Assembly: GCA_045111535.1 (NCBI GenBank)
Contig: JBGUGM010000194.1
Span: forward strand, 1 to 45,684
Reading direction: 5' to 3'
Length of the DNA stretch: 45,684 nt
Source: Bacteroidaceae bacterium
Lineage (GTDB): Bacteria > Bacteroidota > Bacteroidia > Bacteroidales > Bacteroidaceae
The position numbers and the translations under genes are program-made. The notes beneath the pieces were generated by a model. The model saw nothing but the letters and a program-made list of their open reading frames with translations. It had not been told where the DNA came from and ran no database searches. This document shows positions 30,499 to 42,437 of this stretch, piece after piece (the first letter of the stretch is position 1; the number at the start of each line of letters is the position of its first letter).

Positions 30499-31986
30499 TT
30501 GACTCGATTTGTTCAATACATCCGTAGGACGCTCTCCACACGAATCAGTTTGTGGGTATTGCTGTCGGTGACCCTCCTTTTGGTGGTTGCCCTCGTGGTG
30601 ATGTTCCACTATTCCCACAATGCCATCGAGAAAGAGTCTTTGGCTAAGGCAGAGCAGATGCTGAACGGCAAGGTGAAGTACATCGAGAACCAGATGCACC
30701 GTCTGGAGGTGGCGACGAGGAATATGCACTGGAACGTGGAGCGCCACTTGGATGATCCCGATGCGATGGAAATCTATTGTTCGGAGATGGTCATGAACAA
30801 TCCGAACGTTGTGGGTTGTGCCATTGCCTTTGCACCGAATTTCTATCCAGAGAAGGGTGAGTTCTACACCACCTATGTTTATCGTGATGAAGAGGAGAGT
30901 GACTTCGTGATGATGACGCACGACCCGTTTGTCATTGAACCAGACCTTTATGCAGATGTACCTTATGTGGGTGTGAACTGGTACAACATTCCGATGAATG
31001 TGAACACCCTTTGCTGGGTGAGACCCCATGCTCCGAACGACACCATCAACTCAACCATTATCACGTGCTGTATGCCTATCCACGACAAGACAGGCAGGCC
31101 CGTGGGAGTCATAGCAACAGATGTGTCAGTGGAATGGTTGTCACGCACCATTCTCCGTGAACAGCCCTTCCCGAACTCCTATTGCATGATGCTGGGTGTG
31201 CAAGGCACCTACATCATTCACCCCGACAGCACCTACCTCTATCACAAGTTGGTGACTATAGAGACAGAGAAAGAGAAAGACCCAGAAGTGCATAAGATGG
31301 TGGAATCCATGCTGGCTGGTGAGGATGGTTGCCGTGCTGTGAATTTCGAGGGGAAAGACTGCTTTGTGCTCTACAAAGCCTTGAACAATGGACGTTGGAG
31401 TGCCTGCATGGTTTGTCCTGAGAGTGACATCTTCTCAGCCAACAAGCGTCAGCAAATCTACATGGTTCTCGTCACGTTGTTGGCTATCGGACTGATTGTC
31501 TGCTTCTGCTTCTACTTCGTCAAGAAGCAGTTAGACCCGCTGAACATGTTGGCAAACTCCGTAAAGCGCATCACTGACGGCAACTACAACACCCAGATAC
31601 CTTCCACCAACAGAGTGGACGAAGTCGGCATCCTGCAAAACAACTTCGGTGCGATGCAGACCTCCTTGTCACGTCATATCCAGAAAATCAGCAAACTGTC
31701 TGACGTTCTGCAAGAGCGCAACGAAGAACTGGCTGAAATCAATGCCCGTGTGAAGGAAGCAGACGACATGAAGATGAAACTCATCCATAAAATTGCCGAC
31801 AAGATGATTCTGCCTATCAAGGAAATTGATGGTGTGGTTGCCACTTTGGATGAGCAGCGTTCGAACCTGAAGAAGGAAGACCTTCAAACCATGTCCGAGC
31901 AGATGATGAGTAACACCAAGGCTGTCACAGATTTGTTAGACCAGATGTTGAACATCCCCAAGAAGAAAAAGAAGAAGACCTCATGA
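30499..31986 (+). CDS. Cache-HAMP-DHp sensor protein lacking a kinase catalytic (HATPase) domain
   Basis: 495 aa. TTG is the only start candidate after the in-frame stop at 30490. Order is TM1, periplasmic Cache-like domain, TM2, HAMP (DPLNMLANSVKRITDGNY...VDEVGILQNNFGAMQ), coiled coil and H-box-like KLIHKIADKMILPIKEI. It ends in PKKKKKKTS without N/G boxes. Confidence 0.7.
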   Translation: MTRFVQYIRRTLSTRISLWVLLSVTLLLVVALVVMFHYSHNAIEKESLAKAEQMLNGKVKYIENQMHRLEVATRNMHWNVERHLDDPDAMEIYCSEMVMNNPNVVGCAIAFAPNFYPEKGEFYTTYVYRDEEESDFVMMTHDPFVIEPDLYADVPYVGVNWYNIPMNVNTLCWVRPHAPNDTINSTIITCCMPIHDKTGRPVGVIATDVSVEWLSRTILREQPFPNSYCMMLGVQGTYIIHPDSTYLYHKLVTIETEKEKDPEVHKMVESMLAGEDGCRAVNFEGKDCFVLYKALNNGRWSACMVCPESDIFSANKRQQIYMVLVTLLAIGLIVCFCFYFVKKQLDPLNMLANSVKRITDGNYNTQIPSTNRVDEVGILQNNFGAMQTSLSRHIQKISKLSDVLQERNEELAEINARVKEADDMKMKLIHKIADKMILPIKEIDGVVATLDEQRSNLKKEDLQTMSEQMMSNTKAVTDLLDQMLNIPKKKKKKTS

Positions 31987-33890
31987 AAAGCCCCGTCTAT
32001 CATATTAACCGCTCCTTGTCGCTGAAACTCTGTCTCGGCATCCTGCTGTTTGTGGTTGTCGTGTTCGTGCTCAGTCTGGGATTCCTCTTCGAGCGTTCAC
32101 GACAGATGGTCAAGCAAGAGGCAATGGCATATACCGAGCACATGCTTGAGAACACTGCCCTGCGTGTGACGGACTACATCAATGAGGTGGAGACTGCCAC
32201 CAACAACATCGAGTGGTTGGTGATGTCGAATCTGCGTCCCGACTCCCTCTTCAACTATTCCCGTCGGGTGGTGGAACTCAACCCCCATGTGAATGGCTGT
32301 TCCATCACGATGGAGCCTAACTTCTTCCCACAATACGGGCGCAACTTCTCTGTCTATACGTTGAGAGACCGCGATTCGATTGAAACCGTTTTCGAGCCTC
32401 CCTACAACTACTACGGTAAGGAGTGGTACAAGACACCCCGTGAGAATGGTGAAGCCTGCTGGATAGATCCCTACAATGACTTTAACGAGGGCGCCCTGTC
32501 CTCTCCCGTCATGATTGCATCCTATTGCAAGCCTCTGAAGAATGAGGTAGGCGACTTCATCGGAGTCATCGCTACTGACCTCCCCATCACCGTGCTCTCC
32601 CAGGCTGTCTCAGCAGAGAAACCCTATCCTAATTCCTACTGCGTGTTGCTGGGTGAGAAGGGTGACTTCTTCGTGCATCCTGACCGCTTGAAACTCGTGA
32701 AGGAAAGCATCTATTCGACTGTGGATGCCAAGGAACATCCTGATGTCATTGCGTTGGGACATGAGATGACCTCAGGCAAGAAGGGCAATATGCAGGTCAA
32801 CATCAACGATGAACCTTGCATCGTGTTCTACCAGCCCCTGGAGCACACGAAATGGAGTATTGCCATTGTATGTCCTGAAAGCGATATCTCCGAGAGTTAC
32901 AACCGTCTGTTCTATATCCTCCTGCCACTGCTCATCATAGGTCTGTTGCTGATGCTCGTGGTCTGCTGGAAAATCATCAGCCACTTCATTCGTCCACTTG
33001 ACCAACTGGCACAGCAGTCACGCTACATCACCGCAGGACACTACGACAAGACACTCCCCAAGAGTGACCGTACCGATGTGGTGGGATATCTGCAGAACAG
33101 TTTCATCTCCATGCAGCAATCCATCAATGAGCACATCACCAACATACAGAAGGTGAATGAGGAGACAGAGAAGCGCAACACCGAACTCCTCACAGCCAAT
33201 CAACTCATCGAGGAAGCCGACCAGCGCAAGGCAAACTTCATCCATGAGGTGTCCCTCCAGATACGTACACCGCTCAACATCATTGCAGGCTTCATGCAGG
33301 TGTTGCGTGAGACTTTCAGTGTGTTGAGTGAAGAGGAGGTCGCAGGCTTCACCACAACGATGAAGCAAAACACCCTCACCATTTATCGAATGGCGCACAT
33401 GATATTCGATGTGTCACGAATGGATGAAAAAATCAAGGTGGATATGTCCAAGGAAGTGGATGTGATGTCTGTGATCCAGGAATCCATCAAGGTCTTTGAG
33501 GAGAAACAACCATATGATGTGATTCTGAACTTTACTTCATCCTTGCCCGATGGCCATACGGTTCACACCAATCGCCTCTATCTGTACAGGATTTTGCGTG
33601 AGTTGCTGATCAATGCCAAGAAATTCTCCATGGGGAATCCTGTCAACTTCTCAGTGGAAGAGGTCGGAGACAAACTTCGGTTCGTTGTCGAGGGTCATAG
33701 TGAAGGCATCAGCGAAGCAGATCGTGAACGTGTATTCGAACCATTCGTGAAACTGTCAAGTTTCACAGAAGGACTTGGATTGGGACTCGGATTGACTCGT
33801 CATCATGCTATCATGTTGGGTGGTAGCCTCGTGCTGGATCCTGATTACACCGAAGGAGCACGATTCATCTACGAGATGCCCAACAAGTAA
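31983..33890 (+). CDS. Sensor histidine kinase (Cache-HAMP-HisKA-HATPase)
   Basis: 635 aa with an ATGA overlap with the upstream gene. H-box ANFIHEVSLQIRTPLN, N-box ELLINAKKFS, G-boxes EGLGLGLGLTRHHAIMLGG. Confidence 0.9.
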   Translation: MKSPVYHINRSLSLKLCLGILLFVVVVFVLSLGFLFERSRQMVKQEAMAYTEHMLENTALRVTDYINEVETATNNIEWLVMSNLRPDSLFNYSRRVVELNPHVNGCSITMEPNFFPQYGRNFSVYTLRDRDSIETVFEPPYNYYGKEWYKTPRENGEACWIDPYNDFNEGALSSPVMIASYCKPLKNEVGDFIGVIATDLPITVLSQAVSAEKPYPNSYCVLLGEKGDFFVHPDRLKLVKESIYSTVDAKEHPDVIALGHEMTSGKKGNMQVNINDEPCIVFYQPLEHTKWSIAIVCPESDISESYNRLFYILLPLLIIGLLLMLVVCWKIISHFIRPLDQLAQQSRYITAGHYDKTLPKSDRTDVVGYLQNSFISMQQSINEHITNIQKVNEETEKRNTELLTANQLIEEADQRKANFIHEVSLQIRTPLNIIAGFMQVLRETFSVLSEEEVAGFTTTMKQNTLTIYRMAHMIFDVSRMDEKIKVDMSKEVDVMSVIQESIKVFEEKQPYDVILNFTSSLPDGHTVHTNRLYLYRILRELLINAKKFSMGNPVNFSVEEVGDKLRFVVEGHSEGISEADRERVFEPFVKLSSFTEGLGLGLGLTRHHAIMLGGSLVLDPDYTEGARFIYEMPNK

Positions 33891-33893
33891 CTC

Positions 33894-34895
33894 CTAACTT
33901 TTCTTATTCAGGAACTCTGCTACCCTGTTTCGTAGCAGTTGGTATGTGTCGCAATCCTTGAACTGAGTGTTGCGACGCAGCATTTGTGCCGGTTGGAACT
34001 GGCTGTGTGAATAGCACGACAATTCGTTGTTCATCTGCTGGCTATTGCCACGCGCCAGCATCTTGATGTCCTTTTCCCGTTCACGCCTCAAGATGGTGCA
34101 TACAGGCGTCAGGGCAGCATCCACCACATTCTCCATCAGGTGATGTCCCTGGATGAAGAGGTACGTGTTCTCCTTCCTCAGTCCCAACTCAGCCAACTCC
34201 ATCTTCAGCGGTGTCAGTTTTCCCTTCGCATCCTTCACATGCTGCTGCAACCACGCCAATTTGCGGTTCACCTGCCTGCGCACCCGTTCCAGGGCATCAA
34301 TAGGCTTGAACACATTCAGTTGCTCCACCGACACGATATTATTGAAATTGTTCAGAGGGAAATCGTTGAAGCGTCCACGCCGGTGCAGCCACACCATCCA
34401 TATAAACAACTCGTAGATGATTTCCGAGTACTGGCGCAGATACTCCTCAAAATTGAAGATGTCCCTGTCATTCAGCGTTGCCATCACACACACATTGTGC
34501 AGCGAAGGCGCATAGCACTGGTAACTCTCGATGGAATAGGCATACGTGTGAATCACGTAAGGATTGTCCAGCATCCTTTGCGACGAAGGTGTATGGCGTT
34601 GCAGCAGGTAATCCAAGTCCGCATCCACACACGCAATCATATAGCCACCCAACGACTCCCCAAGCCTGTTCATCAATGCCGTCTTCTTGCCCCTGTTCAG
34701 GTTGGTGCGCGAAGGCAGCATCACCTCAAACGCCGTGTTCTCATCCTCAAACTCGCTCAGCACACTCCTCCAGAAGAAGATATCATCATAACTCTCCACA
34801 TACACCACAATCTTCCGCTTGCGGTTCTTCGGACGCAAACGGTTCGCAGCCTCTATATAGGCAGAGGTGATGTTGGAGGTAAGGTGCCGCGACAT
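33894..34895 (-). CDS. DUF4435 / TOPRIM (OLD-family-like) protein
   Basis: 333 aa. KIVVYVESYDDIFFW (Toprim Glu context) and MIACVDADLDYLL (DxD). Its start lies 1 nt after the stop of the upstream ATPase gene. Confidence 0.75.
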   Translation of the reverse strand: MSRHLTSNITSAYIEAANRLRPKNRKRKIVVYVESYDDIFFWRSVLSEFEDENTAFEVMLPSRTNLNRGKKTALMNRLGESLGGYMIACVDADLDYLLQRHTPSSQRMLDNPYVIHTYAYSIESYQCYAPSLHNVCVMATLNDRDIFNFEEYLRQYSEIIYELFIWMVWLHRRGRFNDFPLNNFNNIVSVEQLNVFKPIDALERVRRQVNRKLAWLQQHVKDAKGKLTPLKMELAELGLRKENTYLFIQGHHLMENVVDAALTPVCTILRREREKDIKMLARGNSQQMNNELSCYSHSQFQPAQMLRRNTQFKDCDTYQLLRNRVAEFLNKKS

Positions 34896-34896
34896 A

Positions 34897-35754
34897 TTAG
34901 TTTGTTATCTCATTCACCTCCGTCACATTGCTCATCCACCCGTCCATGATGAGGGCAGGGGAGTGTGTGGAGAGGATGATTTGTGCATTCGGGTTCAGTT
35001 GACGGATCAGGTCAATGAGTCTTTGTTGCCAATCGATATGGAGGGAAATCTCGGGTTCATCCATCAGCAGGGCGTACGGTTCGCGGTTCTCCACCAGCAC
35101 CGTCAGCAAGATGGCAAGCATCTGCTTCTCACCGCTCGAGAGTTGGTAAGGGGTCAGCAGTTCTCCCTCCGTTGTCTGTTGTCCGTTGTCCGTTGTCTTT
35201 TGTATAAACTGAATCTCATTGCTCTTCCTGTCAATCTTCTTGTTCGTGTCGGCAAAGAGTTCGTCAATCATGTCCTGGAACTGCTTCTTTGGCGCACTCA
35301 CCTCCGCAGCCTTCAGCTGATCCTCGGGATCACCACTGGTGAGCAGTTCGATGATGCGGTTGCCGATGTTCACCTGATAGTCAAGGAATCGCTTCTGCAA
35401 TCGGTATATCTGCCAATCCAGTTCCGTCTTCACACGCGAATCCGACAGTTTCTCCAGCAAGTCGCTGTGCAGCAGAGGGCGGTCAAACGAGCGGATGACG
35501 TCAAACTTGATGTACGTCGCATCCTCAGGCATCAGTTTGATGGTCACCCCCTGTGGTGCATCCTTCGGCACAATCTCGTTGCGGTCTATCTCCGCCAGTG
35601 TCCTTGCCGAATGGTTGATGATGGTGCTCTTGCCCACACCATTGATGCCACTGAGGATGTTCACGTCAGGTTGGAGATTCCACACCACGTGCCTGCCACC
35701 CTTCCAAAGTGCCTTAATCTCTATGCTCTGGATGTAATCTGCTCTTTTTCTCAT
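34897..35754 (-). CDS. ABC/SMC-type ATPase (AAA_15/AAA_21-like)
   Basis: 285 aa from the ATG at 35754. N-terminus YIQSIEIKALWKGG...NILSGINGVGKST (Walker A), LSSGEKQ signature, LLMDEPEISLH Walker B, STHSP H-loop. Confidence 0.8.
   Translation of the reverse strand: MRKRADYIQSIEIKALWKGGRHVVWNLQPDVNILSGINGVGKSTIINHSARTLAEIDRNEIVPKDAPQGVTIKLMPEDATYIKFDVIRSFDRPLLHSDLLEKLSDSRVKTELDWQIYRLQKRFLDYQVNIGNRIIELLTSGDPEDQLKAAEVSAPKKQFQDMIDELFADTNKKIDRKSNEIQFIQKTTDNGQQTTEGELLTPYQLSSGEKQMLAILLTVLVENREPYALLMDEPEISLHIDWQQRLIDLIRQLNPNAQIILSTHSPALIMDGWMSNVTEVNEITN
35169..35203 (+). repeat. 35-bp heptamer module (CCGTTGT CTGTTGT CCGTTGT CCGTTGT CTTTTGT) inside the ATPase gene
   Basis: Read directly from the sequence. 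On the coding (-) strand it encodes QKTTDNGQQTTEG. Confidence 0.9.
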
Positions 35755-35773
35755 AACAAATACATTTTTATCA

Positions 35774-35983
35774 TTACCATAATTGGATGTCCGTGAAATC
35801 GAATTGATTCTCGAAGTCTTCGAAGTCATCGAAGTCGGTCATCATCGGAGCACGTCCACCACCAGTGCCGCCACCTTTATAGCCAACGTCACCTTCGATT
35901 TTATCTACAGTGCTGCCAACAAGGACACCCTGCATGTTCATTCCTATCACCTCCATCTGAGGCTTCATATATATCTTCTTCAT
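35774..35983 (-). CDS. Small hypothetical protein, Gly-rich centre and acidic/aromatic tail
   Basis: 69 aa: MKKIYMKPQMEVIGMNMQGVLVGSTVDKIEGDVGYKGGGTGGGRAPMMTDFDDFEDFENQFDFTDIQLW. Same strand as the ATPase gene and 19 nt upstream of it. No homology recognised. Confidence 0.5.
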   Translation of the reverse strand: MKKIYMKPQMEVIGMNMQGVLVGSTVDKIEGDVGYKGGGTGGGRAPMMTDFDDFEDFENQFDFTDIQLW

Positions 35984-35997
35984 AATCTTCTACTTTT

Positions 35998-36148
35998 AAC
36001 CACGAATTTTTTTGTTTTGAACACGAACCTTTAGCTCGGCGTAGCCAATTACACGAATTTAACGAATTTAGATGCTTTATTTATTCGTGTTTATTCGAGA
36101 GATTCGTGTTCGTTCTTCTCATTCGTTGAATTCGTTTTAATTCGTTGT
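35998..36148. repeat. ACGAAT-rich palindromic element, left copy
   Basis: ~150 bp with ACGAAT(T) words in the first half and ATTCGT words in the second. Contains the 34-bp core TTGAACACGAACCTTTAGCTCGGCGTAGCCAATT (36017-36050), which recurs as an exact reverse complement at 42388-42421. Confidence 0.85.
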
Positions 36149-36150
36149 TA

Positions 36151-39100
36151 TTATTTAATTACGATTTTTTTGCCGTTAAAGAGATACACACCCTTCGTGG
36201 CGGGCTTGCCGTTCAGTTTCAAACCGCTCAGCGTGTACCAACTGTCATCTGTCAACTGTCCACTGTCCACTGTCTCGATGTTCGTTTCCTCGTCTCCGAA
36301 GTCCACCACCATGTTCTTGATGCCTCCTTCTCCCAGACCTGAGTCAATGGCTTCGATGCCGCCCAAGAGTTGGAAGTAAGCACGAAAGCAGTTGAGGTAT
36401 GAGTAGTTCTTCGGGTAGAAGAGGTTTTCCCCGTCCATGAGCAGCACACTGGGCGCATCTTGTATGTATTCCCACAACGTGTATGTGCCATCGAAAGAGA
36501 TGAGGTCGGTAATCACCACAGGATTCAAGGTGGCGTTGAGCGTCACGTTCTTGAAAGTGGGCGCATACAAATCAGAGGCTAATTCTGGGTGTTCGTAATT
36601 GAATGCCACATAGGGATCAGGTTTTTCCCACTTGATCAGGTATGGTACACCTGCCTTCAGTTCCGTCTCGCTACCCTCCGTGAACTTCAGCGTCAGGGTG
36701 CCATTCTTCAGCGAGGCATCCTTCAGCGTCTTCACCTCCACGCCAGGACCATCCAAAGGACTGCCAGCCACCGTCACGTCGAATGGCAGGCAGAGGGTGT
36801 TCCACTTGCCATCCTTGTACAAGACACGGTCAGGGAACGAAGCATTCACCTTCTGTCCATTGTAGTTCGCCAGCGTGTTTTTGTTGCTGAGTCCATCATA
36901 GAAGAATACACATGTGACGGTTTCCGACTTGCCGAAGTTGAACAGCACATCCTTGTACTTGAGTGGGAGACCAGGGGAAAGCAATGTCATGCAGTAGTTC
37001 GCACCCAAGGAGGTGACACCTTCAAGTCGTTGCATGGTATAGGTGGGCTCATGTTCGCCATCTATACTTAGTTCAATCAATACCACATCTTGCTTCCCGT
37101 CACCATCAAAGTCATAAAACCTGGATAGTGTATAATCATCAGTTTCCTTAGGTTGGTTAGCATTCGGATCTTCTTCAGAGCCCTGAGTTTCTTCAGAGCC
37201 CTGAGTTTCATTATTCTCCTGAGGATGGTTCTCAACTCGCTCTATATCGACCAGATAACCCTCCCATTGGCTCATCAAACTTGCCATTTCTCTATTCATT
37301 ACCTTACCATCGAGGGCGACAGGGTCGTCACTGGTCAGGTTAAACACCAGTGTCTGCTGTGGTGCCATCTCCGCATCCACTGTCACTTTCTTGGCAGGCA
37401 TGATGAAGTAATGATTATATTCATCTTCCTCCACAATGGTCACATCCGTAGAAGTGAACTCACCCGTGAAGTACATGTTGGCAGGAATGACGTCTGGGTT
37501 CACGTCCACCCATACCTTTTCTCCTCTGAATGCCTCGCTAATCAGATTGGGTTTGTCGTTGAAGAAATCCACATAATCCTTCTCCCGTTCTCCGCTTTCG
37601 GCATCCACTTCCACGCCACTCTCCAAAGGATATGGATCCATATACGTAGCCGTCACCACCACATTGCCTTCAGGCATCATGAAGTAAAGGTCGCCATCCT
37701 CGTTCGTCTTGACCTCTAACGAAGTCTCTCCTTGCTTCACAGTCAGCACATCCACTGCCTGTCCTTCAGGCTCATCCACCCTCACGATGATGTCGTTTCC
37801 TGGCCACACCTTCCACACCTTGATGATGCTCGTTTCATCTTCATTTTCATCTTCCTCAGCCTTTCCTCCATCCACATAATAGAATGACATGTTGTCCTCA
37901 CCTGTCAGCGTGTACGCTACTGGTTCCACAGGGATGTCCGCGTAAGTGACAGTCACGGTCACATCGCCTGCAGGCATCGTGAATAGACCCGTACCATCCT
38001 CATATTGTATGCTCCGAACAAAAGTCTCACCCTGCATCACCGTCACCTCGTCGATTTCCTTTCCTGCTGGAATGGAGACTGTATAGGAAACCGTTGTTCC
38101 TGCGAGTGCCTGTGTGACCACCTCCTCTCCGATGCGGAAAGTGATGCCTTCCATGCCCGTCAAGGTGTAATTTTGTGAAAATGTGGTTGCCACCGTCACC
38201 GCACCCTCGGGCATCGTGAACGTGTAAACATCCTTGACATCATCGTATGTAAGCGCCACTTCAGTCTCGCCACACATAGCCGTCAACTCTTTCAGCGTGT
38301 TCCCTTCTGGTACATTCACCTTCATGGTGATGATGTCCTCGTTTCTCGCCTCCTTGACTTCTTTCCCTCCCAAATAGAAGGTTGCATAGTCACCTGTCAG
38401 GAGATGGATATGATAGTATTTCTTCAGAAGTCCACCTGCATCCGTGTGAGCAAACATCGCACCTTTTTTCTTCAAATCATTTGCATTACAATTTTCTATT
38501 TTCGTACCATACTCTCCTTCAAGGCTATTGCATCCATAAAACATGTCTTTTCCTCCCTTCTCAAGTCTTCTCCATCTCGTATCATCTACGAAGATGGACT
38601 TCAAATTGGAACAGCCTTCAAACATGCTATTCGTAGTGGCTGCTGTAGTTGTCTTACGGTTTTTGGGATAAGTATTATATAAATCTTTCAAGTCAAGGGT
38701 GGTCAGCGCACTACAATTCTTGAACATCATCTTCATGCTTGACACCATCGGGGCATCAAAACCACTCAGGTTAAGAGAGGTAAGCGCACTGCAATTTTCG
38801 AACATGCTATTGATGGCTAATGTCTTCGAACCATGAACTATGATGTTGCTTAGGTGAACTGTTTCCAAAGAACTACAATCAGAAAACATACTACTCATTT
38901 TTCGCAAACTCGGAAAATTCAGTTTACTTAGGTCAAATGTCTTCAAAGAACGACACCTAACAAACATGCCACCCATATTTGTCAAATTCGGAACATTGAT
39001 GCCGCTTAGGTCAACTGTTTCCAAAGAACTAATCGTTTTATTATCGACCGCAAACATGTTAACCATGTTTGTCAACACCGGAGCATCCAGTTTACTGAGG

Positions 39101-40029
39101 TTAACTGTTTTCAAAGAAGGACAATTATAAAACATCTTACTCATGTTCTTCACTTTCGGAGCCTCCATCCCACTCAGGTCAATCGTTGTTAGAGGTCTGT
39201 TTTTGTCGGAGAAGAAACTGGCAAGGCTTGACACATTCCCTGTATTGAATCCACTCATATCGATTTTTCTGAGCCCATTACAGCCTTTGAACAGATTTTT
39301 CATTTGTTTCAAATTCGTTGCATCAAATCCGCTCATCTTGAGAGTGTCTAAAGCACTACAGTCCTCAAACATGGAACTGATGTTAGTCACGTTTTTCGCA
39401 TCAAATTCACTCAAATCAAGTCCGGTTATTTTGCCACACCCCTTGAACATTTGTTTCATGTCCGTCACATTGGAAGTGTCGAAATTGCCCAAATCAAGAG
39501 TTGTTAGAGCGCTGCACCCCCAGAACATGCCACTCATATCCGTCACCTTTGAAGTGATGAAACCGCTCAAATCAAGGGAGTTGGAATTCAGAACGCTGCA
39601 ATCCTTGAACATTTGTTTCATGGACGTGACTTCATCGGTTTTCAGGTTTTTAATGCCTTCGATGCTTGTCAGTTTTTTAAACCCGTTAAACCAATCAATG
39701 CAGTAAATGGGTCGGGCAGCGCTGAATGAGTCCTCAAACACCACCTTGGTACAATCTTTTTTTGCGCTACTCCATGAGGCTTTATTTGTTGTTTTTACAC
39801 CTTGAGGATCAGCCTTATCCGGAATCCTCCATGCGTAGATGATATATCCATTGTGATTTTCGCTTTTCTGATGTGCCACATTGTCTCTAACAAAATACAA
39901 TGTGCTTTCAGTCTTGTTCCAGAGTACCCACGATGCCATTTCCTGTGCTCCTGCCGTCACCGACGCCAACATCACGAGCATCACCATGATTGCCCGCATA
40001 AAAAGACTTCTTTGTAATGTAGTATTCAT
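36151..40029 (-). CDS. BspA-type leucine-rich-repeat surface protein with T9SS C-terminal sorting domain
   Basis: 1292 aa from the ATG at 40029, with a signal peptide (MVMLVMLASVTAGAQ). About 14 repeats of ~25 aa (LDLSxFDxxNVTxMxxMFxxCSxL), then four ~85-aa repeats each ending in (F/I/M)MPxGxVTVxxT. C-terminal YTLSGLKLNGKPATKGVYLFNGKKIVIK is a T9SS CTD. Confidence 0.88.
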   Translation of the reverse strand: MNTTLQRSLFMRAIMVMLVMLASVTAGAQEMASWVLWNKTESTLYFVRDNVAHQKSENHNGYIIYAWRIPDKADPQGVKTTNKASWSSAKKDCTKVVFEDSFSAARPIYCIDWFNGFKKLTSIEGIKNLKTDEVTSMKQMFKDCSVLNSNSLDLSGFITSKVTDMSGMFWGCSALTTLDLGNFDTSNVTDMKQMFKGCGKITGLDLSEFDAKNVTNISSMFEDCSALDTLKMSGFDATNLKQMKNLFKGCNGLRKIDMSGFNTGNVSSLASFFSDKNRPLTTIDLSGMEAPKVKNMSKMFYNCPSLKTVNLSKLDAPVLTNMVNMFAVDNKTISSLETVDLSGINVPNLTNMGGMFVRCRSLKTFDLSKLNFPSLRKMSSMFSDCSSLETVHLSNIIVHGSKTLAINSMFENCSALTSLNLSGFDAPMVSSMKMMFKNCSALTTLDLKDLYNTYPKNRKTTTAATTNSMFEGCSNLKSIFVDDTRWRRLEKGGKDMFYGCNSLEGEYGTKIENCNANDLKKKGAMFAHTDAGGLLKKYYHIHLLTGDYATFYLGGKEVKEARNEDIITMKVNVPEGNTLKELTAMCGETEVALTYDDVKDVYTFTMPEGAVTVATTFSQNYTLTGMEGITFRIGEEVVTQALAGTTVSYTVSIPAGKEIDEVTVMQGETFVRSIQYEDGTGLFTMPAGDVTVTVTYADIPVEPVAYTLTGEDNMSFYYVDGGKAEEDENEDETSIIKVWKVWPGNDIIVRVDEPEGQAVDVLTVKQGETSLEVKTNEDGDLYFMMPEGNVVVTATYMDPYPLESGVEVDAESGEREKDYVDFFNDKPNLISEAFRGEKVWVDVNPDVIPANMYFTGEFTSTDVTIVEEDEYNHYFIMPAKKVTVDAEMAPQQTLVFNLTSDDPVALDGKVMNREMASLMSQWEGYLVDIERVENHPQENNETQGSEETQGSEEDPNANQPKETDDYTLSRFYDFDGDGKQDVVLIELSIDGEHEPTYTMQRLEGVTSLGANYCMTLLSPGLPLKYKDVLFNFGKSETVTCVFFYDGLSNKNTLANYNGQKVNASFPDRVLYKDGKWNTLCLPFDVTVAGSPLDGPGVEVKTLKDASLKNGTLTLKFTEGSETELKAGVPYLIKWEKPDPYVAFNYEHPELASDLYAPTFKNVTLNATLNPVVITDLISFDGTYTLWEYIQDAPSVLLMDGENLFYPKNYSYLNCFRAYFQLLGGIEAIDSGLGEGGIKNMVVDFGDEETNIETVDSGQLTDDSWYTLSGLKLNGKPATKGVYLFNGKKIVIK
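36239..36273 (+). repeat. 35-bp heptamer module (CAACTGT CATCTGT CAACTGT CCACTGT CCACTGT) inside the LRR protein gene
   Basis: Read directly from the sequence. On the coding (-) strand it encodes ETVDSGQLTDDS, immediately before the T9SS tail. Confidence 0.9.
37173..37208. repeat. Perfect 18-bp tandem duplication inside the LRR protein gene
   Basis: CTTCAGAGCCCTGAGTTT x2, encoding ETQGSE-ETQGSE in an acidic linker. Confidence 0.9.
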
Positions 40030-40070
40030 ATTCAATAGGTTGTAAAAGATTTTCTTTATAAATACGGGTA

Positions 40071-40078
40071 CAAAGTTA
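40071..40078 (-). promoter_or_regulatory. -7 box (TAacTTTG) for LRR surface protein gene
   Basis: Reverse strand reads CACTTATTCGTAACTTTGTACC, 42 nt upstream of the ATG at 40029. Confidence 0.55.
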
Positions 40079-40449
40079 CGAATAAGTGAGCAAAATACAA
40101 AATAATTTTACAATTATTTTTATTTTCGAACGCGAGTAACTTAGGTGAAGCCAATGTGGTGAAAACCGAGCGAAGCCAAAGTTGCGAATAAGTGAGGGTA
40201 TATATAAATATTTTTGAGATATGCAAGTTTGTTGCGTTTTTTCTGCTTTTTTGGTAACTGGTAACCATTTTCGGCTATTTTGACAGGTGTTTTACGTATG
40301 CGTTGGTGTCTTTACGGGCAACGCACGCGTGTCTTTGCGGGGGAGTCAAGCAAGTCTTTGTGAGGGTCTCAGACCAGAGGCTACGGGCAAGGCACGATAG
40401 GGTTATTTGCAGTGTCTCGTTCTTGATAAAGGCGGCGTTACCCCGAAAG

Positions 40450-40635
40450 CGGTTAAAAAGTAAAAAAGTAAAAAAGTAAAAAAGTCATTTTTTCTTTCAC
40501 GTGTACGCGCATAATAAATATATATATAATATATATAATAAATATATAAATAATATTTATTTACCGTACTCCCCCTATTAATAATCCCCCAAACCATGAT
40601 GTTTTTTACCTTTTTACTTTTTTACTTTTTTACCG
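40450..40635. repeat. 186-bp palindrome: (AAAAAAGT)4 arms around an AT-rich core
   Basis: The left arm CGGTTAAAAAGTAAAAAAGTAAAAAAGTAAAAAAGTC (40450-40486) is a near-perfect reverse complement of the right arm GTTTTTTACCTTTTTACTTTTTTACTTTTTTACCG (40601-40635). The 114-bp spacer includes ~50 bp of pure A/T (40511-40562). Confidence 0.9.
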
Positions 40636-40709
40636 TTCAACATTTTTTCAGGGGTTTGATTTCCTCATTTTTGGATGTTTTGGGCAATTTTGGGATATAC
40701 ATTGCAAAA

Positions 40710-40744
40710 AACTTCTAACTCCTAACTTCTAACTCCTAACTTTT
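40710..40744 (+). repeat. 35-bp heptamer module (AACTTCT AACTCCT AACTTCT AACTCCT AACTTTT)
   Basis: Read directly from the sequence. Ends 4 nt before the -7 box at 40748. A truncated version (AACAAGT AACTCCT AACTTTT) sits at 33882-33902. Confidence 0.9.
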
Positions 40745-40747
40745 CAT

Positions 40748-40755
40748 TAACTTTG
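40748..40755 (+). promoter_or_regulatory. -7 box (TAacTTTG) for PurF-like gene
   Basis: CATTAACTTTGCAG, 28 nt upstream of the ATG at 40783. Directly preceded by a heptamer array. Confidence 0.55.
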
Positions 40756-40782: not shown

Positions 40783-42270
40783 ATGGGAGGTTTTTTCGGG
40801 ACCGTATCAATGGAAAAATGTGCGGCAGACCTGTTCTATGGCACTGACTATCAGTCACACCTCGGTACAAGACGCGGAGGTATGGCTTCGTACAGCAAGG
40901 AGAAGGGTTTCTACCGCGCTATCCACAATCTTGAGAGCACTTATTTTCGTACACGCTTCGAGGCTGAACTGCCTAAGTTTGAAGGGGAGTCGGGCATCGG
41001 TATCATCAGTGACACGGATGCGCAGCCTATGCTCTTCAACAGCCATTTGGGGCGTTTTGCCATCGTGACTGTGGCGAAAATCAACAATATGGAGGAGATT
41101 GCCTCCAAACTGCTGGCTGAGAACATGTATCTGTCGGAGTTCTCGTCGGGCAAAATCAATCCGACGGAGTTGGTGGGCGTGCTGATTGTGCAGGGCAAGA
41201 CCTTTGTGGAGGGCATCGAGAATGTGTTCAAGACAGTGAAGGGCTCTTGCTCAATGCTGCTGCTGACGGAGGATGGCATCATCGCTGCCCGTGACGCTTG
41301 GGGACGCACCCCGATTGTGGTCGGACAGAAGGAGGGGGCAATGGCTGTGACGAGTGAGAACACAGCATTCCCGAACTTGGGTTATGAGACGACTTACTTC
41401 GTGGGTCCTGGCGAGATTGTGCGTCTGCGTGCCGATGGCATGGAGCAGTTGCGCAAGCCCAACAAGAAGATGCAGATTTGTTCGTTCCTCTGGATCTACT
41501 ACGGATTCCCCACTTCTTCGTACGAAGGCAAGACAGTGGAGGATGTGCGTTTCGAGACAGGTCGCGTGATGGGCGAGACAGACGATACGGAGGTAGATTG
41601 TGTGGGTGGCATCCCTGATTCGGGTATCGGCATGGCTGTGGGTTACAGCGCCGGCAGCAAGATTCCTTATCAGCGTGGCATCAGCAAATACACACCGACA
41701 TGGCCACGTTCGTTCATGCCACCAAGTCAAGCGGTGCGTAACCTCGTGGCGAAGATGAAACTCATCCCGAATAAGGATATGCTGCAGGGTAAGCGCTGCC
41801 TGTTCTGCGATGACTCTATCGTGCGCGGCACACAGTTGCGCGAGAACACGAAGGTGCTGAAGGAACTGGGTGCGAAGGAGGTGCACATGCGTATTGCCTG
41901 CCCACCGCTGATTTATGCTTGTCCTTTCGTGAACTTCTCTGCCAGCAAGTCAGAACTGGAACTCGTGACACGCCGTGTCATCAAGGACTTGGAGACGCAT
42001 TCACGCACTGCCACGATGTTGGCAGATGCACAGACGGCACAGAACGTGGAGGTGCCTGCTGAGCGCATCAAGGCATACGCCACCACGAATTCGCCTGAAT
42101 ACAAGGCCATGGTGGAGGAGATTGCCCGTCGCCTGAACCTCGACAGCCTCAAGTTCTCTTCACTCGAAACGATTGTGAAGGCTATTGGCTTGGAGAAGTG
42201 CCAGATCTGTACTCACTGCTTTGACGGCAGTTCGTTCCACTCGCTGGAAGAGGAAAACGTGAATGAATAA
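40783..42270 (+). CDS. Amidophosphoribosyltransferase-like protein (PurF paralogue lacking the N-terminal Cys)
   Basis: 495 aa from the ATG at 40783, which is 28 nt after a TAacTTTG box. Ntn-type GATase-like N-half begins MGGFFG instead of MCG. PRPP-binding loop CLFCDDSIVRGTQ. Cys-rich tail CQICTHC. Confidence 0.75.
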   Translation: MGGFFGTVSMEKCAADLFYGTDYQSHLGTRRGGMASYSKEKGFYRAIHNLESTYFRTRFEAELPKFEGESGIGIISDTDAQPMLFNSHLGRFAIVTVAKINNMEEIASKLLAENMYLSEFSSGKINPTELVGVLIVQGKTFVEGIENVFKTVKGSCSMLLLTEDGIIAARDAWGRTPIVVGQKEGAMAVTSENTAFPNLGYETTYFVGPGEIVRLRADGMEQLRKPNKKMQICSFLWIYYGFPTSSYEGKTVEDVRFETGRVMGETDDTEVDCVGGIPDSGIGMAVGYSAGSKIPYQRGISKYTPTWPRSFMPPSQAVRNLVAKMKLIPNKDMLQGKRCLFCDDSIVRGTQLRENTKVLKELGAKEVHMRIACPPLIYACPFVNFSASKSELELVTRRVIKDLETHSRTATMLADAQTAQNVEVPAERIKAYATTNSPEYKAMVEEIARRLNLDSLKFSSLETIVKAIGLEKCQICTHCFDGSSFHSLEEENVNE

Positions 42271-42271
42271 A

Positions 42272-42434
42272 AAACAACGAATTAAACGAATTACACGAAT
42301 TAAATAAAACTGCGGATAAATAGAAACGAACACGAATCACACGAATAGACACGAATAAAAAATCCGTTCAATTCGTTTAATTCGTGAAATTGGCTACGCC
42401 GAGCTAAAGGTTCGTGTTCAAAAAAATACGTGGT
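42272..42434. repeat. ACGAAT-rich palindromic element, right copy (inverted relative to 35998-36148)
   Basis: By hand alignment, its reverse complement matches the left copy over ~150 bp, apart from one ~15-bp indel. Exact 34-bp core at 42388-42421. Confidence 0.85.
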
Positions 42435-42437
42435 TTG

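Follow-up and report, generated by a model that had tools for sequence, protein, structure and literature searches.

PARIS pairs an ABC ATPase of the AAA_15/AAA_21 type (AriA) with a DUF4435/Toprim nuclease (AriB), and is understood from one E. coli system, that of the P4-like satellite of strain B185 (PDB 8UX9, 8V45-8V49). In this system a four-helix bundle of AriA forms the 'CC' interface that assembles a hexamer and binds the trigger Ocr, and AriB docks at the head-to-head ATPase interface (PMC10802264; PMC11464382). Here, we analyze a gene pair in a stretch of 45,684 nucleotides from a Bacteroidaceae bacterium (assembly GCA_045111535.1, contig JBGUGM010000194.1, positions 1 to 45,684; the whole stretch is referred to as the window), for which an initial annotation had proposed a compact, PARIS- or OLD-like module of an ABC ATPase and a DUF4435/Toprim protein. 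Our analysis indicates that this pair probably represents a subtype of PARIS with a short AriA, a module of one sensor gene and one effector gene, in which AriA occurs naturally in a minimal form without the bundle, intact in hundreds of Bacteroidaceae species of the gut and rumen. In the searchable literature we found neither a description of the short-AriA architecture nor of its relation to the E. coli structures.

Both open reading frames (ORFs) of the pair were confirmed on the minus strand of the window. The ATPase gene (34897..35754, 285 amino acids [aa]) comes first and is separated by a single base from the nuclease gene (33894..34895, 333 aa), the junction (TAA-T-ATG, 34893..34899) reading AAC TAA T ATG TCG. 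The longest ORF for the ATPase would start at an ATG at 35829 and encode 310 aa (34897-35829). Because this start would run into a small ORF upstream, and because the homologous proteins of over 70 species start at the residue that corresponds to its Met26 (MRKRADYIQSIEIK..., pattern MK.AEYI.SIEIK), the model of 285 aa is correct. In this numbering the ATPase carries the Walker A motif GINGVGKST (residues 36-44, including Lys42; 35623..35649), the ABC signature LSSGEKQ (residues 205-211; 35122..35142), which aligns with the signature motif of E. coli AriA, the Walker B motif and D-loop LLMDEPEISLH (residues 229-239, including Asp232 and Glu233; 35038..35070), which align with DEPEISLH of E. 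coli AriA, and, from sequence reading and homologue alignment, the H-loop STHSP (residues 262-266, including His264; 34957..34971). All of these motifs for ATP binding and hydrolysis are invariant among 40 homologues. The nuclease contains the Toprim acidic motif VYVESYDD (residues 31-38, including Glu34 and Asp38; 34782..34805), the DxD motif CVDADLD (residues 89-95, including Asp91 and Asp93; 34611..34631) and a third acidic element, SIESYQ, with Glu123 (34518..34535), which are likewise invariant in its homologues. Thus the four ATPase motifs, the spacing of one nucleotide and the two Toprim motifs named in the initial annotation were all located.

The profile searches that had been proposed as a check (Pfam PF14491, PF13304/PF13175 and PADLOC) gave significant matches for both proteins. 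Pfam assigns the ATPase to AAA_21 (1.2e-19, 71.9 bits) and AAA_15 (3.4e-17, 63.6 bits) and the partner to DUF4435 (1.7e-48, 165.9 bits, model positions 1-237 of 238). The published MacSyFinder rule for PARIS asks for at least 27 bits to AAA_21 or at least 32 bits to AAA_15, at least 27 bits to DUF4435 and the presence of both genes (PMC9122126), and the pair satisfies it. In PADLOC the AriA model PDLC04164 covers the ATPase from position 4 to 251 of 253 (1.8e-55), and the partner matches AriB models only (PDLC02983, 1.3e-58; PDLC04165, 1.7e-36); NCBIfam has no specific model that matches either protein. The best match of the ATPase among PDB sequences is an AriA chain (8ux9_B, 4.6e-13), and a Foldseek search with its confident AlphaFold2 (AF2) model (mean predicted local distance difference test [pLDDT] 84.2, predicted template modelling score 0.83) ranks AriA chains first (8v46_A, E 3.9e-10, TM 0.57), with PtuA chains close behind. 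The relation to PARIS proposed in the initial annotation is therefore borne out by profiles, sequence and fold. Since existing tools such as PADLOC and DefenseFinder would already call the pair PARIS, and since the PADLOC AriA model of 253 positions fits from end to end, the kind of system is already known. What the window holds is an uncharacterized, short-AriA and core-like variant of it.

The ATPase also matches the PADLOC models for PtuA (1.1e-23), mad3 (3.8e-19), AbiLi (2e-13) and GajA (1.3e-12). Membership of the pair in Septu (PtuAB), AbiL, Gabija/OLD or MADS is nevertheless highly improbable, as the AriA model is ahead by more than 30 orders of magnitude with end-to-end coverage and the partner is of the AriB type. 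Septu and retron-associated PtuA, the second-best structural match, shares the ABC ATPase fold and likewise has a coiled coil of reduced length, but its partner is the HNH nuclease PtuB, whereas the partner here is a DUF4435 protein. OLD-family proteins and GajA of Gabija follow the same logic of ABC ATPase and Toprim, but do so in a single polypeptide with Toprim_Old instead of two genes, and GajA requires the helicase GajB, while no helicase neighbors the pair. For AbiL no AbiLii match was found in the partner, and for MADS neither a methyltransferase nor any other MADS gene is located near the pair.

Compared to E. coli PARIS, gene order is the same, every ATPase motif is present and the five acidic Toprim residues are equally spaced, but the ATPase is much shorter (285 vs 464 aa), with about 160 residues of the coiled-coil/IS1-IS2 region gone. 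From Lys42 of Walker A to Ser206 of the signature there are 164 residues, compared to about 328 in E. coli AriA. This agrees with the roughly 170 residues, and with the limited room for a coiled coil, that the initial annotation had pointed out. A HMMER alignment to E. coli AriA matches residues 27-50 to 24-47 and residues 163-270 to 322-430, so that Walker A is separated from the C-terminal half by 112 residues in the window protein and by 274 in E. coli AriA. PHROG 7507 (483 positions) agrees, with residues 154-284 mapping to positions 330-465. In the AF2 model the insert is one two-helix hairpin (residues 111-166; 35257..35424, minus strand) of helices 111-138 and 143-166, which is the only remnant of the AriA coiled-coil insert and takes the place of the four-helix bundle. 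The short form is not a local accident, since ATPase lengths cluster at 269-281 aa in 73 species loci and short clusters dominate a large search: an exhaustive search of 1.84 billion representatives gave 261 clusters at E <= 1e-30, and among the 150 listed, lengths are mostly 270-350 aa and few exceed 400 aa.

The remaining hairpin is well conserved. Among 70 species its first helix (111-138), in which the motif LDYQVN is invariant, matches the ATPase core in conservation (mean majority frequency 0.83 vs 0.82), and the variable parts of the ATPase are the loops at about 50-70 and 186-197. Judging from the model, the hexameric propeller and the Ocr-binding site of E. coli PARIS probably do not apply to the short ATPase. 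With a single hairpin in place of the bundle, the pair probably differs from E. coli PARIS in its oligomer and in the surface that binds the trigger, and hence in the trigger, although two hairpins could pair into a four-helix, CC-like interface, which would allow higher oligomers. The suggestion of a minimal or divergent subtype thus holds for the architecture, and by the PADLOC models and the Pfam-based rule the pair still belongs within PARIS.

For the nuclease, E34, D38, D91, D93 and E123 are invariant among 18 homologues (62-85% identity), the acidic residues of VYVESYDD also in 10 highly divergent DUF4435 proteins, and all five stay so when five proteobacterial plasmid DUF4435 proteins (18-20% identity) are added. 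The metal-binding acidic residues of E. coli AriB are E26, D30, D88, E90 and E122 (PMC11464382), and the spacing of the five residues matches this series, including the shared E-x3-D spacing. The window residues would thus correspond one by one to those of E. coli AriB, Glu123 being the putative equivalent of E122. This correspondence is drawn from spacing and invariance and not from a direct alignment, because direct searches of the PDB failed: no E. coli AriB chain was retrieved by phmmer with the window nuclease or with a homologue from a Klebsiella plasmid, nor by a profile of the 18 close homologues or one that included the five plasmid proteins. An AF2 model of the nuclease built from the 18 homologues was dropped as evidence (pLDDT 63, with the Toprim core 62-144 below 50), and gave no Foldseek match at E <= 0.001. 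The positions of the salt-bridge residues R28 and R31 of AriB appear, by spacing, to be occupied by Tyr36 and Ile39, and the details of the interface probably differ from those of E. coli AriB.

By analogy to E. coli PARIS, for which the mechanism is taken from published work (PMC11464382; PMC10802264; PMC12409363), the ATPase would form ATP-sandwich head-to-head dimers, on which the nuclease would dock and be held inactive. A cue would then drive an ATP-dependent rearrangement that releases the nuclease, which would dimerize and cut RNA, most likely the anticodon stem-loops of tRNAs; translation would stop and the infected cell would be sacrificed. PARIS is further characterized by anti-phage activity triggered by anti-restriction proteins and by the cleavage of tRNA, and by the same analogy the pair may have an anti-phage role.

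The distribution of the pair was determined by scanning one genome per GTDB species for relatives of the nuclease, with the best 80 loci used for context. At least 597 species genomes encode such a relative. Almost all of the best 80 bear the label Bacteroidaceae, Prevotellaceae, Paraprevotella or Bacteroides, and a few have other names; most are metagenome-assembled genomes (MAGs) from the rumen, horse and human gut. The short ATPase is located directly upstream of the DUF4435 gene wherever the contig allows, in about 78 of the 80 species loci, and the identities of AriA and AriB correlate (rho 0.91, n = 76). In Bacteroides, including B. finegoldii and B. thetaiotaomicron, the orthologues (for example the DUF4435 proteins WP_072066365.1 and WP_022275889.1 and the ATPase WP_007751218.1) are 'MULTISPECIES' RefSeq proteins on at least 1000 contigs, and the B. 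finegoldii pair sits between a DMT transporter gene and a mechanosensitive channel gene. The searchable literature yielded nothing relevant on PARIS in Bacteroides or Prevotella, or on stable vertical inheritance of the short-AriA type in Bacteroidaceae.

In the clade of the window the purF-like gene is followed by AriA and AriB and then by the genes for the kinase, the dCache protein, an arabinofuranosidase and tyrS, an order that persists where the identity of tyrS has dropped to about 94-97%. Pair identity tracks the identity of the flanks (Spearman rho 0.72-0.88, n = 13-14). Elsewhere the neighbors are housekeeping genes in conserved, lineage-specific blocks, some confirmed by Pfam (trkA, dxs, a superfamily 1 helicase, DUF3109 and a TM2-domain protein) and others recognized by reading translations (murF/alr, asnB, sodA, a trpB-like gene, xerD with hpf, a pfkB-type kinase and an aldolase); no integrases or defense genes were noticed among the translated neighbors in these loci. 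The pair was present in 12 of 12 metagenome loci anchored by the purF-like gene that had kept synteny and enough flank, this anchor being informative only where synteny is kept, as it lies in another context in distant species; in one locus (L111) a six-gene insert fills the flank. The ratio of nonsynonymous to synonymous substitution rates (dN/dS) is 0.03-0.09 for AriA and AriB, similar to that of tyrS (0.02-0.06) and the purF-like gene (0.04-0.07), and the adjacent sensor genes reach 0.12-0.22, with one outlier of 0.40 from a poorly matched dCache match. The initial annotation had placed the pair in an accessory pocket. As the pair is conserved, syntenic, flanked by housekeeping genes and under purifying selection as strong as that on tyrS, it is itself not accessory; it is a long-resident, vertically inherited, core-like chromosomal locus of Bacteroidaceae, and the accessory DNA at this site is a leucine-rich repeat (LRR) gene with a small ORF. 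In contrast, E. coli PARIS resides on a satellite or in a hotspot. The absence of a recognizable defense island, which had also been remarked on, was confirmed for the window, where none of 10 neighboring proteins matched a PADLOC model.

Three species-representative MAGs named Roseburia sp., Acutalibacteraceae and Clostridium sp. (L035, L051 and L059) contain pairs of the Bacteroidaceae type with 54-62% nuclease identity to the window, and their contigs are probably mis-binned. One 34.8-kb record (L169; NZ_OY725943.1, B. finegoldii 'plasmid 41') bears a plasmid label but resembles a piece of chromosome. It lacks any typing for replication or mobility, and its genes include meaB and those for alpha-2-macroglobulin, a TonB-dependent receptor and a mechanosensitive channel.

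What speaks most strongly against a plain defense reading is the core-like context, which keeps a second explanation in play: the pair may be a domesticated housekeeping or regulatory module, i.e., a PARIS-derived, ATPase-gated Toprim RNase that would now have a cellular function instead of phage defense, such as the stress-triggered or maturational cleavage of a stable RNA. The spread over so many species genomes, the conserved syntenies beside tyrS, dxs, trkA, murF/alr, sodA and the purF-like gene, and a dN/dS equal to that of tyrS and below that of the adjacent sensor kinases all fit this explanation, as do a hairpin that shows no sign of diversification, an unremarkable GC content (0.514 for the pair, 0.493 for the window) and the lack of any relative of the pair in IMG/VR or GenBank phages. 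It has furthermore been reported that the Toprim core of AriB superposes on RNase M5 (PMC12409363). Clade-wide presence, however, was seen for one syntenic clade, in the 12 informative loci, and not for the whole family. Moreover, to our knowledge every characterized relative (PARIS, OLD, Gabija, Septu and AbiL) is a defense system. Domestication is also at odds with the occurrence of the same short type of pair on small mobilizable plasmids, which fits selfish or defensive cargo. Weighing these points, we consider domestication unlikely, though worth keeping in view.

These mobile relatives were found by tblastn against plasmids, which returned distant pair members with 21-25% identity on Klebsiella pneumoniae pK708696-4 (L170, 4.4 kb), E. 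coli W pRK2 (L171, 5.4 kb) and plasmids of Acinetobacter and Psychrobacter (L172-L174). The small carriers (4.4-7 kb) are mobilizable and mostly of ColE1 or MOB type, and the Psychrobacter plasmid measures 41 kb. As in the window, the short ATPase (325-336 aa, except for one of 415 aa in A. baumannii) is directly followed by the DUF4435 gene, and on the smallest plasmids the pair is almost the sole cargo. Only the Klebsiella pair was compared directly, the others being judged by annotated gene layout. Its ATPase aligns over the full length with that of the window (29% identity, E 4e-31), hhalign relates its nuclease to the window family with a probability of 98.3%, and the Klebsiella and window pairs have the same best PADLOC models. 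The models PDLC04164/PDLC04165 are common to the plasmid pairs and the window pair. The proteobacterial pairs differ from the window pair in their location on mobile plasmids of 4-41 kb, in an ATPase that exceeds that of the window by about 40-50 residues and has an additional insert following Walker A, and in an identity of only 18-29%. Carriage of this sort is typical of defense or addiction cargo, and the short-AriA type thus occurs in two settings, as cargo of plasmids and as a resident locus of Bacteroidaceae.

Small plasmids are also where addiction would be selected, and E. coli AriA acts as antitoxin and chaperone for AriB (PMC10802264). With the tight gene order, ATPase first and a gap of one nucleotide, this is consistent with a chromosomally fixed toxin-antitoxin module, in which the ATPase would be only antitoxin and chaperone and the pair would be kept since loss of the ATPase kills, not for phage sensing. 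Addiction alone, however, explains neither why both genes have remained under strong purifying selection while genera diverged nor why every motif for ATP hydrolysis is invariant, and chromosomal toxin-antitoxin loci usually decay or turn over, which makes this explanation improbable.

A PARIS-type sensor and effector module therefore has to be set against several observations that weigh against it. The region that in E. coli AriA binds Ocr and builds the hexamer is largely missing, and the hairpin that remains is highly conserved instead of diversified. Neither sequence nor fold confirms the nuclease directly, as it has diverged too far from E. coli AriB, and the AriB salt-bridge positions seem not to be conserved. 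The genomic context, with housekeeping neighbors and without adjacent defense or mobility genes, is atypical for defense. The pair is found at none of the usual locations of PARIS (satellite, prophage, plasmid or defense hotspot), which are not strictly defining, and its synteny is long-lived, with co-divergence of the pair, tyrS and the purF-like gene. According to the initial annotation, an abortive-infection or anti-phage module would be contradicted if the homologues proved to be core genes that are not enriched near defense genes, and for genomic context this is largely what was found. It is therefore homology, that to the PARIS family, which argues for the anti-phage part of that proposal, and a search of the literature found no experimental report on a short-AriA pair. 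Taken further, and offered as a tentative and rather doubtful proposal, a PARIS-derived ATPase-gated Toprim RNase may have become fixed as a core pair of Bacteroidaceae (Prevotella/Segatella, Paraprevotella and Bacteroides), serving either as a hard-wired immune sensor for a conserved cue of invaders or as a domesticated regulator of host RNA, with a minimal ATPase that lacks the bundle for hexamer formation and trigger binding.

In practice this identification has modest consequences, as PADLOC and DefenseFinder would label the pair PARIS in any case. As a natural AriA without the bundle, the pair can be used to ask which parts of the mechanism are indispensable and what else may serve as a trigger. 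It also raises the question whether an abortive-infection module can become a stable, species-wide component of dominant gut bacteria, which, if true, would matter for the ecology of phages and for phage therapy directed at Bacteroides and Prevotella.

Within the window the pair is located between a sensor kinase gene and the gene of a large surface-type protein, as had been described. The kinase (31983-33890, plus strand, 635 aa) was confirmed by Pfam profiles (dCache, HisKA and HATPase_c). The large protein (36151-40035, 1294 aa) stands as a DUF285/BspA-type LRR protein by Pfam, and the sorting tail of the type IX secretion system that had been read in it was confirmed by no profile. The kinase gene is the second of two tandem dCache sensor paralogues on the plus strand (30499-31986 and 31983-33890), which overlap by 4 nt; the first encodes dCache and HAMP domains without kinase domains and the second a full histidine kinase. 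Both evolve much faster than their neighbors, with about 64% and 70% identity where tyrS has 96%, and a dN/dS of 0.12-0.22. A functional link between the pair and the kinase was considered and rejected, as the genes are convergent, the kinase evolves much faster (70% identity, dN/dS 0.12-0.16) and it is not beside the pair in distant species. Rfam and tRNA scans of the window were empty.

Upstream of the pair, at 20 nt from the ATPase start, lies an ORF of 69 aa on the minus strand (35774-35983; MKKIYMKPQMEV..., with a Gly-rich middle and an acidic C-terminus), which has no match in Pfam, PADLOC, NCBIfam or PHROGs. The initial annotation had treated it as a possible part of the module, but it was found in only one of the 80 species loci (L013, 100% identity); as it matches no family and is not beside the pair in the other 79, it was rejected as a third component, and it travels with the LRR insertion and not with the pair. 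In nine more distant species loci (L054:1206-1649 and eight others) the ATPase is immediately preceded, on its own strand, by a conserved ORF of about 147 aa without a Pfam match. This ORF may represent a third gene specific to the lineage, or a mere neighbor.

The gap between the purF-like gene and AriA (window 35755-40752; L111:1-5700; L009:4611-7149) is a variable insertion site. It is occupied by the LRR gene with the small ORF in the window, by a phosphonate/glycosyltransferase cluster (phosphoenolpyruvate mutase, phosphonopyruvate decarboxylase and glycosyltransferase) in L111 and by unrelated genes in L009, L014 and L015. The 6.1-kb segment with the LRR gene and the purF-like gene is flanked by two inverted copies of an element of about 165 nt (35990-36150, minus strand, and 42270-42437, plus strand), which contain ACGAAT arrays in both orientations with a spacing of 9-10 nt and share an exact core of 36 nt (AATTGGCTACGCCGAGCTAAAGGTTCGTGTTCAAAA). 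ACGAAT occurs 44 times, against 19.8 expected, the first copy has a stable predicted RNA fold (z -3.8), and the position of the second is also occupied by a copy in L093 and L094. The element could be a REP/MITE-like (repetitive extragenic palindrome or miniature inverted-repeat transposable) element or a bidirectional terminator.

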